Source: Caedibacter taeniospiralis
Lineage (GTDB): Bacteria; Pseudomonadota; Gammaproteobacteria; Francisellales; Francisellaceae
DNA length: 32,000 nt
Reading direction: 5' to 3'
Assembly (NCBI RefSeq): GCF_002803295.2
Contig: NZ_PGGB02000001.1
Location: 1-32,000 of the forward strand
How positions within the stretch are numbered: the first letter of the stretch is position 1; every line of letters starts with the position of its first letter. The notes under the pieces were generated by a model. It was not told the DNA's origin. It saw nothing but the letters and a program-made list of their open reading frames with translations, and searched no databases. The translations under genes were made by a program, and so were the position numbers. Of the stretch, positions 226-6,784 are shown piece by piece.

Positions 226-1861
226 AAACTGAAGAGTTTGATCCTGGCTCAGATTGAACGCTGGTGGTATGCTTAACACATGCAAGTCGAGCGGTCTAGG
301 AACTAGATACTAGAAACTAGAAACTAGGGGTTGAATCGCTGCGCGATGATTTATTCTAAAGAATCACCTTGCTTGGTAAGGTTCGACTTCCACTTTCTAG
401 TTTCTAGTCTCTAGTTTCTAGATAGCGGCGGACGGGTGAGTAACGCGTAGGAATCTGCCGTACAGAGGGGAACAACAGATGGAAACGTCTGCTAATACCG
501 CATGAAGCCTGAGGGTGAAAGGTCGCGCAAGCGGTCGCTGTATGATGAGCCTGCGTTGGATTAGCTGGTTGGTGAGGTAAAGGCTCACCAAGGCGATGAT
601 CCATAGCTGTTCTGAGAGGAAGATCAGCCACACTGGGACTGAGACACGGCCCAGACTCCTACGGGAGGCAGCAGTGGGGAATATTGGACAATGGGGGCAA
701 CCCTGATCCAGCAATACCACGTGTGTGAAGAAGGCCTTAGGGTTGTAAAGCACTTTAGTTCGTGAGGAAGGCTATCAGGTTAAGAGCTGGATAGTTTGAC
801 GTTAGCGAAAGAATAAGCACCGGCAAACTCCGTGCCAGCAGCCGCGGTAATACGGAGGGTGCGAGCGTTAATCGGAATGACTGGGCGTAAAGGGTTCGTA
901 GGTGGTCAGATAAGTCAGATGTGAAATACCTGGGCTCAACCTGGGAGGGTCATTTGAAACTGTTTGACTAGAGTTTACTAGAGGATTGGGGAATTTCCGG
1001 TGTAGCGGTGAAATGCGTAGAGATCGGAAGGAACATCAATGGCGAAGGCAACAATCTGGGGTTGAACTGACACTGAGGGACGAAAGCGTGGGGATCAAAC
1101 AGGATTAGATACCCTGGTAGTCCACGCTGTAAACGATGAGTACTAGCTGTTGGTCCTGGTGTAAAAGGATTAGTGGCGCAGCAAACGCGATAAGTACTCC
1201 GCCTGGGGACTACGGCCGCAAGGTTAAAACTCAAAGGAATTGACGGGGACCCGCACAAGCGGTGGAGCATGTGGTTTAATTCGATGCAACGCGAAGAACC
1301 TTACCTGCCCTTGACATCCATAGAAGACGAGAGAGATTTTGTTGTGCCTTCGGGAACTATGAGACAGGTGCTGCATGGCTGTCGTCAGCTCGTGTTGTGA
1401 AATGTTGGGTTAAGTCCCGCAACGAGCGCAACCCTTATTTTTAGTTGCCATCATTAAGTTGGGCACTCTAGAGAGACTGCCGCTGATAAGGCGGAGGAAG
1501 GTGGGGACGACGTCAAGTCATCATGGCCCTTACGGGCAGGGCTACACACGTGCTACAATGGGCATTACAGAGGGAGGCGAAGGTGCGAGCTGAAGCGAAA
1601 CTCAGAAAGGTGTTCGTAGTCCGGATTGCGCTCTGCAACTCGAGCGCATGAAGTCGGAATCGCTAGTAATCGCGGATCAGCATGCCGCGGTGAATACGTT
1701 CCCGGGTCTTGTACACACCGCCCGTCACACCATGGGAGTGGGTTGCAAAAGAAGTAGATAGTCTAACCGTAAGGGGGACGTTTACCACTTTGTGATTCAT
1801 GACTGGGGTGAAGTCGTAACAAGGTAGCCGTAGGGGAACCTGCGGCTGGATCACCTCCTTA
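226..1861 (+). rRNA. rrs: 16S ribosomal RNA, containing a ~129-nt intervening sequence in helix 6
   Basis: It starts AAACTGAAGAGTTTGATCCTGGCTCAG and ends GGATCACCTCCTTA. Universal blocks are present (GTGCCAGCAGCCGCGGTAATAC, GCAACGAGCGCAACCC, TGTACACACCGCCCGTC). The length is 1636 nt including the insertion. Confidence 0.97.
295..423 (+). mobile_element. Intervening sequence / palindromic element in 16S helix 6 (V1), with CTAG-heptamer arms and a ~70-nt structured core
   Basis: It lies between the conserved GCAAGTCGAGCGG and TAGCGGCGGACGGGTGAGTAA. The left arm is AACTAGATACTAGAAACTAGAAACTAG. The right arm TTTCTAGTTTCTAGTCTCTAGTTTCTAGA is its imperfect reverse complement. The core TTGAATCGCTGCGCGATGATT...AATCACCTTGCTTGGTAAGGTTCGA is related to the cores at 2204-2265, 3241-3307 and 6429-6495. 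Confidence 0.85.
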
Positions 1862-1976
1862 AAGGTACGAGTATGATGTTGAATTTTTAATGTTGAATGT
1901 TGAATTTTTGATGTTTGAAGTACGAAAGAAATTAAGAAAGAGCGAGAAGTATTTGAGTGTTTACAAATGATGTTTT

Positions 1977-2092
1977 TTCTAGAGACTAGAAACTAGAGAC
2001 TAGAAACTAGAAACTAGAAACTAGAGACTAGAGACTAGAGACTAGAAACTAGAATACTTCTAGAAACTAGTCTCTAGTCTCTAGTATCTAGT
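1977..2092. repeat. Tandem CTAG-heptamer tract (about 16 units of ACTAGAA/ACTAGAG, then the complementary TCTAGT units) immediately 5' of tRNA-Ile
   Basis: Direct reading gives TCTAGAGACTAGAAACTAGAGACTAGAAACTAGAAACTAGAAACTAGAGACTAGAGACTAGAGACTAGAAACTAGAATACTTCTAGAAACTAGTCTCTAGTCTCTAGTATCTAGT. The two halves are partly self-complementary. Confidence 0.9.
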
Positions 2093-2169
2093 GGGTCTGT
2101 AGCTCAGCTGGTTAGAGCGCACCCCTGATAAGGGTGAGGTCGGTAGTTCAAGTCTACTCAGACCCACCA
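2093..2169 (+). tRNA. tRNA-Ile (anticodon GAT)
   Basis: The sequence is GGGTCTGTAGCTCAGCTGGTTAGAGCGCACCCCTGATAAGGGTGAGGTCGGTAGTTCAAGTCTACTCAGACCCACCA. It folds as a cloverleaf with anticodon loop CTGATAA and an encoded CCA. This is the canonical rrn spacer position. Confidence 0.97.
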
Positions 2170-2311
2170 TCTAGAGACTAGTGTCAAGAGACTAGAAACT
2201 AGGGATTGAATCTTGCTGTGCGAGATGATTTTTTAAATGAATCATCGCGAAGCGATTCGAGTCTGGTTTCTAGTTTCTAGAGTAAGCGCAGCGAGCGTTC
2301 TAGTATCTAGA
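2170..2311 (+). mobile_element. CTAG-heptamer palindromic element, ITS copy 1 (142 bp), between tRNA-Ile and tRNA-Ala
   Basis: The sequence is TCTAGAGACTAGTGTCAAGAGACTAGAAACTAGGGATTGAATCTTGCTGTGCGAGATGATTTTTTAAATGAATCATCGCGAAGCGATTCGAGTCTGGTTTCTAGTTTCTAGAGTAAGCGCAGCGAGCGTTCTAGTATCTAGA. It is identical to 2388-2529. Confidence 0.9.
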
Positions 2312-2387
2312 GGGGCCATAGCTCAGCTGGGAGAGCGCCTGCTTTGCACGCAGGAGGTCAGGAGTTCGATCCTCCTTGGCTCCACCA
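2312..2387 (+). tRNA. tRNA-Ala (anticodon TGC)
   Basis: The sequence is GGGGCCATAGCTCAGCTGGGAGAGCGCCTGCTTTGCACGCAGGAGGTCAGGAGTTCGATCCTCCTTGGCTCCACCA. It has a G3:U70 pair, anticodon loop TTTGCAC and an encoded CCA. Confidence 0.97.
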
Positions 2388-5045: not shown

Positions 5046-5185
5046 TGAACGTCTGGAGCGTGAAGAGGTTGCAAATACCAGGTGGCTGCGACTGTTTACT
5101 AAAAACACAGCACTCTGCGAACTCGGAAGAGGAAGTATAGGGTGTGACGCCTGCCCGGTGCTGGAAGGTTAATTGAAGGGGTTAT

Positions 5186-5486
5186 CCTACCACTTAATTA
5201 TTTTGGAGTTTGATATGTATTGTGTATACGTGATTTATTCGAAAGAATTAGATAGTTTTTACTTGTGGGTTATAGTGAAAACCTAAGGAAAAGGATTGAT
5301 TCGCATAAGTCGGGTAGAAGTAGATATACAAGCCGAACGAGAGATTGGATTCTTGTCTACTACGAAGCTTACGCAAGTGAAAAGCTTGCTAGGTTAAGAG
5401 AAGCTAAATTAAAGCGAGCGAATCGAATGAGGAGTTTGTTGTATAAAGGCTTAAGAGAAGAAATATCAGAGTAATTAAGTGGTAGG
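5186..5486 (+). mobile_element. 301-bp insertion in 23S domain IV (hairpin just 5' of helix 69), bounded by a 15-bp perfect inverted repeat and carrying a GIY-YIG ORF
   Basis: CCTACCACTTAATTA (5186-5200) is the exact reverse complement of TAATTAAGTGGTAGG (5472-5486). The flanks GAAGGTTAATTGAAGGGGTTAT and AGAAGCTCTGGATCGAAGCCCCAGTAAACGGCGGCCG are contiguous in other 23S rRNAs apart from a short loop. Confidence 0.85.
5215..5474 (+). pseudogene. Small GIY-YIG nuclease-family ORF (UPF0213/YhbQ-like), frameshifted near codon 17
   Basis: The ATG at 5215 gives MYCVYVIYSKELDSFYLWVIVKT*, which contains the GIY-like strand. The frame from 5265 continues (V)GYSENLRKRIDSHKSGRSRYTSRTRDWILVYYEAYASEKLARLREAKLK, which contains the YIG, Arg and Glu motifs. 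The two parts join only after a 1-nt (or 2-nt) frame correction around 5260-5266. Confidence 0.7.
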
Positions 5487-6396
5487 AGAAGCTCTGGATC
5501 GAAGCCCCAGTAAACGGCGGCCGTAACTATAACGGTCCTAAGGTAGCGAAATCCCTTGTCGGGTAAGTTCCGACCTGCACGAATGGCGTAACGATGGCCA
5601 CACTGTCTCCAACTGCGACTCAGTGAAATTGAAATTGCTGTGAAGATGCAGCTTTCCCGCGGCTAGACGGAAAGACCCCATGAACCTTTACTGTAGCTTT
5701 GCACTGGACTTTGAGAATATTTGTGTAGGATAGGTGGGAGACTAAGAGATTCGTACGCTAGTATGGAAGGAGTCGACGTTGAAATACCACCCTGATATTT
5801 TTGGAGTTCTAACTCAGACGAGAGTCGAGGACAGTGTATGGTGGGTAGTTTGACTGGGGCGGTCTCCTCCTAAAGAGTAACGGAGGAGTACGAAGGTGCA
5901 CTCGGCGCGGTCGGAAATCGCGCCAAGAGTATAAAGGCAAAAGTGCGCTTAACTGAGAGAGTGACGGCTCGATCAGGTACGAAAGCATGCTATAATGATC
6001 CGGTGTTTTTTTTTGAATAAGACATCGCTCAACGAATAAAAGGTACGCTAGGGATAACAGGCTTATAAATTCTGAGAGTTCCTATTAAAGAATTTGTTTG
6101 GCACCTCGATGTCGGCTCATCACATCCTGGTGGTGCAGAATCTGCCAAGGGTTTGGCTGTTCGCCAATTAAAGTGGTACGTGAGCTGGGTTTAAAACGTT
6201 GTGAGACAGTTTGGTCCCTATCTGTTGTAGAATTAAGAAACGAGGCTGAGATCGACGCCAGTACGAGAGGACCGACTAGAACTAGCCTCTGGTTCGGCAT
6301 CTATTTCAACAAAGGCATAGCCCAGTAGCTACGTTCGGAATGGATAACCGCTGAAAGCATCTAAGCGGGAAGCCAGCCTCAAGATGAGATCTCCCG

Positions 6397-6529
6397 TCTA
6401 GAGACTAGAAACTAGAGACTAGAAACTAGGAGTTGAGTCTTGCTTTGCAAGATGGGTTGTTTTTTATAAATCAATTCATCGCGAAGCGATTCAAGCTCTA
6501 GTTTCTAGTCTCTAGTTTCTAGTCTCTAG
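6397..6529 (+). mobile_element. Intervening sequence / CTAG-heptamer palindromic element at the 23S helix-98 position
   Basis: It is inserted between AAGATGAGATCTCCCG and TTAAGGGTTGTTGAAGACTACGACGTTGATAGG. The arms are TCTAGAGACTAGAAACTAGAGACTAGAAACTAGG and CTCTAGTTTCTAGTCTCTAGTTTCTAGTCTCTAG. The core contains the hairpins CTTGCTTTGCAAG and CGCGAAGCG. Confidence 0.85.
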
Positions 6530-6668
6530 CTTAAGGGTTGTTGAAGACTACGACGTTGATAGGCTGGCTGTAGAAGTGCAGTAATGTATGAAGCTAACCA
6601 GTACTAATTGCCCGAGAGACTTGGTTATTACTCTATGATAGATTGTTAGAGCTTTCTGCTCGCAGGTT

Positions 6669-6784
6669 ACCTGATGAAAATAGCGACTGTGAACCACCTG
6701 ATTCCATTCCGAACTCAGAAGTGAAAACAGTTAGCGTCGATGATAGTGTGGCATTCGCCATGTGAAAGTAGAACATCATCAGGT
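6669..6784 (+). rRNA. rrf: 5S ribosomal RNA
   Basis: The terminal stem is ACCTGATGA...TCATCAGGT. The conserved CCGAACTCAGAAGTGAAA block is present. It lies directly 3' of 23S. Confidence 0.9.

Follow-up and report, generated by a model that had tools for sequence, protein, structure and literature searches.

Tandem-heptamer hairpins at eight sites in the rRNA operon of Caedibacter taeniospiralis: a probable family of intervening sequences, one copy of which carries a PF05635 gene

The rRNA operon of the gammaproteobacterium Caedibacter taeniospiralis harbours eight related elements with arms made of 7-nt repeats, one of which encodes an intact protein of the PF05635 family. We analysed the first 32 kb of contig NZ_PGGB02000001.1 (NCBI RefSeq assembly GCF_002803295.2), hereafter the window, which holds a complete 16S-tRNAIle-tRNAAla-23S-5S operon of 6.6 kb (226-6784, delimited with Rfam and ARAGORN) together with a further 25.4 kb of sequence. 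The elements are probably rRNA intervening sequences (IVSs) of a single family, with terminal inverted repeats built of tandem heptamers, that are removed from the transcript by RNase III and that recombine with one another at the DNA level through their arms. An earlier reading of the same letters (the original prediction) had pointed to the repeats and proposed a transposon-like origin for them; the PF05635 gene was absent from it.

The family is both dense and local. The motif ACTAGARACTAGA, allowing at most one mismatch, has 49 matches in the window where 0.04 are expected by chance, all of which fall within positions 302-6530, with 0 matches in the other 25 kb. Period-7 arrays detected with Tandem Repeats Finder are likewise confined to the operon, and CTAG occurs 89 times in its 6.6 kb as against 25 times in the other 25.4 kb. 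Thus, the palindromic family with CTAG-heptamer arms at eight sites, and the lack of heptamer tracts elsewhere in the window, stand as originally predicted. So do the helix assignments, since alignment to E. coli rrnH places the 16S insert at E. coli positions 76-100 (helix 6, h6) and the 23S inserts at positions 138-171 (helices 9/10, H9/10), 540-546 (H25), 1175-1185 (H45) and 2789-2805 (H98). One element lies in the 16S gene, three in the spacer and four in the 23S gene (Table 1). The 5' arm is always made up of ACTAGAR-type units and the 3' arm of complementary YTCTAGT units, with 3-11 units per arm; arms adjoin the spacer tRNAs within 0-4 nt, and the two elements that follow the tRNAs are identical over 149 nt (2164-2312, as spanned by the first copy). 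Within this one operon the family takes the form of a coding copy, five non-coding copies with a core in one or the other orientation, an arms-only copy and a solo arm, the last of which (2731-2762) has no complementary arm that we could find nearby.

Table 1. Genes of the rRNA operon and heptamer-armed elements within it (window coordinates)
Feature	Position	Strand	Details
SSU (16S)	226-1861		Rfam/ARAGORN
16S helix 6 element	296-423	+	5' arm of 5 heptamers, 296-330; 62-nt core, 331-392, minus orientation class; 3' arm of 4 heptamers, 394-423
Arms-only hairpin directly 5' of tRNA-Ile	1978-2092	+	11 ACTAGAR units, short tip, 5 YTCTAGT units; ends 1 nt before the tRNA
tRNA-Ile	2093-2169		Rfam/ARAGORN
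Element directly 3' of tRNA-Ile	2170-2311	+	starts immediately after CCA; 59-nt core, plus orientation; 3' arm broken by a small side hairpin
tRNA-Ala	2312-2387		Rfam/ARAGORN
Element directly 3' of tRNA-Ala	2388-2529	+	second copy, identical to the tRNA-Ile 3' element
LSU (23S)	2563-6628		Rfam/ARAGORN
23S H9/10 solo arm	2731-2762	+	5'-type arm ACTAGAG ATTGGAA ACTAGAA ACTAGAG, inside the H9/10 insertion
23S helix 25 element	3197-3345	+	6-unit 5' arm; 69-nt core, minus orientation class; 4-5-unit 3' arm
23S helix 45 IVS	3957-4392	+	5 ACTAGAR units, 3957-3992; GGAG Shine-Dalgarno; 116-aa PF05635 ORF, 4001-4351; 5 YTCTAGT units, 4358-4392
23S helix 98 element	6397-6529	+	5-unit arms; 65-nt core, plus orientation class
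5S	6670-6784		Rfam/ARAGORN

The five non-coding cores (59-69 nt) are homologous, and each is itself an imperfect palindrome whose orientation can be read from its two unlike halves: one with a bulged TC-TT-GCTTTGC-AA-GATG side, the other with a CATC-GCGAAGC-GATTC side. Self-palindromy is low, and pairwise scores split the cores into a group comprising h6 and H25 and a group comprising the two spacer copies and H98. Both pairwise alignment and a covariance model identify the first group as the reverse complement of the second, the model separating the two strands by about 45 bits in every copy (h6, 91.3 bits on the minus strand vs 46.1 on the plus strand; H25, 90.4 bits on the minus strand; tRNA-Ile 3' element and H98, 89.7 and 97.6 bits on the plus strand). 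The claim that the core occurs in both orientations is thereby borne out and, because it lies both ways across the eight sites, DNA-level events must have moved or flipped the family. An alignment of seven cores, consisting of the five window copies and two from other contigs, with h6 and H25 reverse-complemented, has 39 invariant columns. Its consensus prefers the two mini-hairpins that had been described in the core; in some copies, however, the minimum-energy fold pairs GCTTTGC with GCGAAGC to give one continuous stem, and seven copies yield too few double changes to prove the mini-hairpins. The original prediction had also remarked that the arms place TAG stops in all six frames. The arithmetic is right, but stop codons in all frames as a selected feature were rejected as an explanation: relatives use CAAGARA or CAGAGGA arms, which are stop-free, so the stops are probably not what selection acts upon.

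Each element folds as one long hairpin with a stem of 25-45 bp and a minimum energy of -60 to -85 kcal/mol. Folds in the rRNA sense are more stable than those of the antisense strand (h6, -66.2 vs -51.3 kcal/mol; H25, -81.4 vs -63.5; H98, -84.7 vs -71.8), as they are in 23 of 26 heptamer stems drawn from six organisms, a set that contains 150 G.U pairs vs 15 A.C single mismatches. When the core alone was flipped in silico, the fold became 8-18 kcal/mol worse in all six copies so treated, whichever orientation class they belonged to. Since native cores fold better than flipped ones and G.U pairs are biased towards the sense strand, the modelled structures indicate that the stems are maintained as RNA in the rRNA-sense transcript and that the assembled core orientations are real rather than artefacts; they also suggest that the flips are old enough for sense-specific adjustment to have taken place. 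Both the two-sense folds and the core-flip test accord with the supposition that the element, when read in the rRNA sense, forms a long stem regardless of core orientation.

These are the features by which an rRNA IVS is recognised: extra sequence, missing from the same place in other bacteria, at the tips of variable helices (at the E. coli positions given above for h6, H25, H45 and H98) and terminal inverted repeats that form a long stem, here of 25-45 bp with G.U pairs biased to the sense strand. A search with RNA models returned no group I or group II intron family at threshold in the window. An alternative is that the hairpins, at least those at h6, H25 and H98, are retained in mature 16S and 23S rRNA as extra surface helices. 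Every site coincides with a known variable or expansion position at the surface of the ribosome, and large inserts in 16S helix 6 persist in the mature rRNA of some bacteria. The perfect 25-45 bp duplexes, on the other hand, are classic RNase III substrates, and the same module occurs in the spacers, which must be removed anyway. The homologous element of Coxiella is, moreover, excised (PMC4990558). We therefore regard retention as distinctly unlikely.

The H45 element shares the arms of the family and carries, in place of a core, an intact open reading frame (ORF) preceded by a Shine-Dalgarno sequence, whose product matches PF05635 (23S_rRNA_IVP; 7e-32) and TIGR02436 (1.9e-30) and finds its nearest solved structure in Xanthomonas XCC0516 (PDB 2GSC; 3.9e-8). 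An IVP-family ORF inside an IVS at 23S helix 45 is the hallmark of the IVSs of Coxiella / Leptospira type, and in the window it is found at 3957-4392 only. The encoded protein is not a known transposase. Because its nonsynonymous divergence (dN) is 0.21-0.34 while synonymous divergence (dS) is saturated, the protein is under purifying selection. It is also a distant homologue of the Avd protein (PF22296) of diversity-generating retroelements (bAvd, 4e-4; NF033474, 2.4e-5; both below the curated cut-offs), with which it shares a four-helix-bundle architecture, but no reverse transcriptase or template/variable repeats lie near the H45 ORF. Thus, the PF05635-bearing copy looks like the coding form of the family, and the five 59-69 nt cores like its non-coding counterparts.

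The closest precedent is the H45 IVS of Coxiella burnetii, which occupies the same helix and carries an S23p ORF of the same gene family, PF05635 (Afseth 1995; PMC4990558). The 5' strand of its 28-bp stem contains tandem GACAGAT heptamers whose number varies between strains (Warrier et al. 2016, PMC4990558), and the stem is cleaved by RNase III in vitro, with ends inside the stem at the first heptamer (PMC4990558). The IVS-encoded protein was proposed as a mobility factor by Ralph and McClelland 1993, as cited in PMC4990558. The precedent is a partial one, since the Coxiella IVS is a single element with a different heptamer, for which no related non-coding copies are reported in that paper, whereas the family in the window occupies eight sites, including the 16S gene and the tRNA flanks, with CTAG heptamers and both core orientations. 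The structure in the window is a variant of the rRNA IVS. The suggestion that the family is unlike any described IVS type needs qualifying accordingly: heptamer arms have a precedent in the GACAGAT stem, while the CTAG unit, the spread over many sites and the flips set the family apart. To our knowledge, the idea that an IVS-encoded protein acts as a mobility factor has never been tested.

Other known elements resemble the family less closely. IVSs without an ORF occur in 23S rRNA at H25 and H45 in Salmonella, Yersinia and Proteus, and at H9 in alphaproteobacteria (summarised in PMC4990558 and PMC11270868). They too are short hairpin inserts at helix tips, differ between strains and between rRNA operon copies, and are cut out by RNase III with no religation. 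We know of no report among them of tandem-repeat arms, of one family extending over 16S, spacer and 23S, or of flipped orientations. Neisseria's Correia/NEMIS elements and other bacterial MITEs (miniature transposable elements with inverted repeats) are likewise small palindromes found in either orientation, with transcript hairpins that are cut by RNase III. Those elements, however, have defined terminal inverted repeats and target-site duplications and are found genome-wide, whereas the ends of the window family are tandem heptamers, no duplication was seen, and the detected copies lie in rRNA operons. Tandem 7-nt units are also known from Xanthomonas, where GGGAATC heptamers form inverted pairs capable of folding into stem-loops, at 70-75 convergent pairs per genome (Rehm et al. 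2015, PMC4692102), with a unit number that varies between strains and no known function, and from cyanobacteria (GGGGA(C/T)T in Nostoc and three heptanucleotides in Calothrix; PMC4692102). Although these resemble the window family in their tandem units and, in Xanthomonas, in their inverted pairing, they are intergenic, have been studied as G-quadruplex formers and are not linked to rRNA or PF05635 in that paper (PMC4692102).

Because low-complexity repeats do break assemblies, we considered whether the heptamer tracts might be assembly or chimera artefacts. Most of the homologous contigs are short, and one (L168, below) resembles a fold-back chimera. However, the elements recur base for base in four independent assemblies (L122, L123, L124 and L125), their sequence varies from copy to copy, and sense-specific G.U pairs are not expected of an artefact. 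This reading, which the original prediction had named as one way in which it might fail, has a probability close to nil and is already effectively refuted.

Near-identical operons also reveal how the elements change. L125 has an H98 element 98.5% identical to that of the window. Between 1522 and about 5600, L124 is an almost perfect match to the window except in three respects. Before tRNA-Ile it has 3 heptamers vs 11, being 56 nt (8x7) shorter; it is without tRNA-Ala and one element, the one 3' of that tRNA; and at H25 it has a core in the opposite orientation (plus class) and different arms, which include CTGGAAA units giving G.U pairs. L122 shares this H25 allele. Since the allele is closer to the H98 core of the window than to the reverse-complemented H25 core, the comparison indicates that the H25 copy was replaced, not inverted in place, between near-identical operons. 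In-place inversion was rejected as an account of this site, the window and L124 copies differing in core and arms beyond reverse complementation. A segment of 23S domain V (5601-6395) stands out in the same comparison: it is 15-20% different from L124 and L125 despite flanks that are 98.5-100% identical, L124 and L125 differ from each other there by 8%, and it is the part of the 23S gene least like that of E. coli (71-80%). Either L124 and L125 are chimeric here or the operon is a mosaic.

More distant relatives were reached through the PF05635 protein. The protein collection contains 908 homologues of it, most of them encoded on short contigs, and contigs were fetched for eight of these. In every fetched lineage but one, the gene lies inside a 23S gene and is flanked by period-7 arms, the exception being L165, where no such arms were detected around it. 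The site is H45 in all but L166, where a cassette with CTAGAAA arms (2878-3403) occupies helix 25 (E. coli 540-555). A scan of the genome collection with the pattern CTAGANACTAGANACTAG returned at least 120 stretches, mostly unrelated CTAGA microsatellites, the pattern being too loose; it gave L115, L042 and L094. A strict CTAG-phase pairing scan over 120 loci from its output missed degenerate partner arms and was uninformative.

The H45 arms are of the CTAGARA heptamer in the window, L115, L126, L130, L133 and L167, and partly in L128. Lineages with such cassettes share only 80-84% 16S and 72-81% 23S identity, and heptamer hairpins hold the same spacer, H25 and H45 positions across bacteria with 72-84% rRNA identity. 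The spacer layout, with a hairpin before tRNA-Ile and one after each tRNA, recurs in L115, L126, L130 (as CAGAGGA hairpins at all three positions) and L134 (as heptamer hairpins after each tRNA). No h6 or H98 insert is present in L115, L126, L130 or L133, while L128 has CAAGARA-armed inserts at E. coli position 404, H25, H45, H68 and the 23S-5S spacer, and its H68 core is homologous to the window core (58 bits). In the window, L115, L128 and L133/L134, the coding copy has the same arms as the non-coding copies of its genome, and in L126 approximately so. Shared positions at such low rRNA identity fit long residence with arm-mediated homogenisation as well as they fit recent colonisation.

Several of these relatives have features of their own. 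Just after the 5S terminator of L115 (2420-2995, minus strand) lies a very large heptamer-armed element, outside the mature rRNAs, in which 34 ACTAGRG units and 12 complementary ones enclose a palindromic core of about 220 nt. In L126, a 23S group I intron with a LAGLIDADG gene (9078-9756; E. coli 1931-1951) adjoins the heptamer-armed H45 IVS, as in Coxiella, and in L127, a lineage with similar elements, DotD adjoins the rRNA operon. In L168 (6253-8399), the PF05635 ORF is antisense to the 23S fragment beside it, after which nusA/rimP recur on the contig in inverted order; this represents either a coding cassette that has flipped or a misassembly that folded back at the inverted arms. A contig from the viral collection, L164, has an arms-only hairpin (3620-3719; CTAGARA / TCTAGTY) immediately before the start of an ORF. 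CTAG heptamer hairpins thus occur outside rRNA operons as well.

These observations can be brought together in a mechanism with an RNA and a DNA component. In the precursor transcript, each element would form a near-perfect duplex of 25-45 bp that stands out from a surface helix at its tip (16S h6; 23S H25, H45 and H98) or lies flush with a spacer tRNA. RNase III most likely cuts these duplexes, as it does in the Coxiella H45 IVS, and the insert would be discarded without religation, leaving 16S rRNA in two pieces and 23S rRNA in several, with the tRNAs released. We infer excision because the Coxiella element is homologous, is cleaved in vitro and has its ends at the first heptamer, and the pairing constraint on the sense strand supports it. 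At the DNA level, since all arms in a genome consist of the same repeat and each 5' arm is the reverse complement of its 3' arm, any copy could recombine with any other, in either orientation, and arms could slip. Such recombination and slippage would account for the uniform arms within a genome, the two core orientations, the replacement at H25 and changes of unit number in multiples of 7.

Several points weigh against this account. No RNase III gene is in view in the window, and at some sites the hairpin could stay in the mature ribosome. Arm recombination cannot explain the first arrival of an element at an arm-free helix, and the 7-nt length of the unit is left unexplained. Nor is homogenisation universal, as in L130 the spacer arms (CAGAGGA), the H25 arms and the H45 arms (CTAGARA) differ. 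Finally, even with one of them reverse-complemented, the window and L124 copies at H25 agree to only about 82%, which leaves no room for a simple recent inversion in place.

The original prediction had instead favoured a MITE-like mobile element. A true MITE would be a non-autonomous element mobilised in trans by a transposase encoded elsewhere, inserting in either orientation and tolerated thanks to removal of its hairpin from the transcript. The presence of eight copies that share inverted ends and have cores lying both ways is in keeping with this, as are differences between lineages in the occupied sites (no 16S insert in L126 and L130, extra ones at E. coli 404 and H68 in L128, a cassette at H25 in L166) and the heptamer-armed hairpins beyond rRNA in L115 (after the 5S terminator) and in the viral contig L164. 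However, no direct repeat other than the heptamers themselves was found at any junction, the arms running directly into the conserved helix base, and no transposase was found in the 32-kb window. All detected copies of the core, moreover, lie in rRNA operons, which bears on a question that the original prediction had raised: the covariance model and motif found no copy in the 25 kb flank, 32 kb of this genome being covered, and a metagenome scan with a strict core-plus-arm pattern gave two contigs only, both rRNA operon fragments of close relatives, a result that says nothing either way about distant genomes. The spacer, H25 and H45 positions are also common to very distant lineages. MITE-like transposition is thus not supported, neither a target-site duplication nor a transposase having been found, and we consider it unlikely.

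The association of PF05635 genes with repeat arms extends well beyond this family of IVSs. Two samples of PF05635 genes, one plasmid-borne and one from viral contigs, were picked with no reference to repeats; arrays of 7- or 8-nt repeats flank 24 of these 25 genes, some of which lie outside rRNA. All nine of the plasmid-borne genes fetched have flanking tandem arrays (period 7, 8 or 14). Among them is the H45 IVS of Azospirillum lipoferum; the rest are located between ordinary genes, which in three cases are cas genes. On the viral contigs, period-7 or period-8 arrays occur within 200 nt of the PF05635 gene in 15 of 16 good matches. From one lineage to the next the sequence of the unit changes freely (examples are TCAGGAG, AAAAGCT, AGGGAGT/ACTCCCT and GTAGTCT/GACTACA), whereas its length is kept. 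Such arrays are essentially absent from about 45 kb of non-rRNA flanks of related loci and from 25 kb of the window. L042 and L094 add two more cases, obtained with the CTAGANACTAGANACTAG scan rather than through the unbiased samples. In the cyanobacterial plasmids L140, L142 and L144, PF05635 genes with long 7- or 8-nt arrays lie between cas6/cas4 or cas10/cmr3, and these cassettes look as if they had been inserted into cas operons. Apart from the remark on GACAGAT in Coxiella (PMC4990558), we found no literature linking PF05635 or four-helix-bundle genes with flanking tandem repeats; the link between the two, broader than IVSs, is apparently undescribed.

One possible extension, which we put forward tentatively and would not bet on, is that PF05635 genes and their flanking inverted 7-8-nt arrays make up a widespread, undescribed selfish cassette that enters transcribed DNA and is rendered harmless by being excised as RNA at the repeat stem, its Avd-related protein acting on the repeats; the elements in the window would then be ORF-less derivatives that multiplied through the rRNA operon. 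If this were true, the insertion targets would be rRNA helices and gaps between cistrons such as those of cas operons, and the fixed length and free sequence of the unit would reflect recognition by the machinery of the cassette.

At the opposite extreme, the hairpins might not be mobile at all, being vertically inherited host modules that present RNase III signals for the release of tRNAs and rRNAs and are kept alike by concerted evolution. The recurrent spacer layout in L130, L134, L126 and L115 would suit such a role, as would the fact that the ordinary 16S leader-trailer stem is itself built of period-7 repeats. Inserts inside mature rRNA helices, by contrast, meet no processing need and come and go between lineages; cores flip, and the H25 copy was replaced, among near-identical operons; and the same kind of arms flank PF05635 genes between unrelated genes such as cas. 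We consider this reading very unlikely. The leader (165-197) and trailer (1876-1916) of the 16S gene, which form the usual processing stem, consist of period-14 and period-7 repeats of AACATTC / GAATGTT type, whose sequence is unrelated to the CTAG arms.

The window contains other insertions and loci that are separate from the family. At the tip of 23S H68 (E. coli 1868), a 295-nt insertion (5187-5481) has an ordinary 15-bp stem of its own (CCTACCACTTAATTA...) and lies outside the heptamer family; it holds a broken GIY-YIG endonuclease gene, in which residues 2-54 of ORF 5265-5474 match PF01541 (2.4e-9), while the N-terminal part lies in a different frame that contains stops. The insertion of 104 nt in 23S H63 (4950-5053; E. 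coli 1735) forms a perfect 27-bp stem without heptamers and is also unrelated. Beyond the operon, a type I-C-like CRISPR-Cas locus occupies 15646-25747 on the minus strand, with Cas1 (17714-18703), Csd1/Cas8c (20476-22365), Cas3 (23732-25747) and two different arrays, one of DR4-type repeats (15646-15793) and one with a 66-nt period (16560-16855).

Taking the elements as heptamer-armed IVSs, the practical consequences are that such inserts break metagenome assemblies of rRNA operons and that, by making 16S helix 6 longer, they affect how amplicons and probes are designed for this lineage. The origin and spread of rRNA IVSs has been an open question since 1990, and the operon described here offers a natural series in one place, from the coding form through non-coding copies in both orientations to an arms-only hairpin and a solo arm. 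Repeat arms near PF05635 genes in almost all the places examined, and an arm sequence usually common to coding and non-coding copies within a genome, make concrete experiments possible. The repeat arms that flank this widespread small gene provide a new handle on where rRNA IVSs come from.

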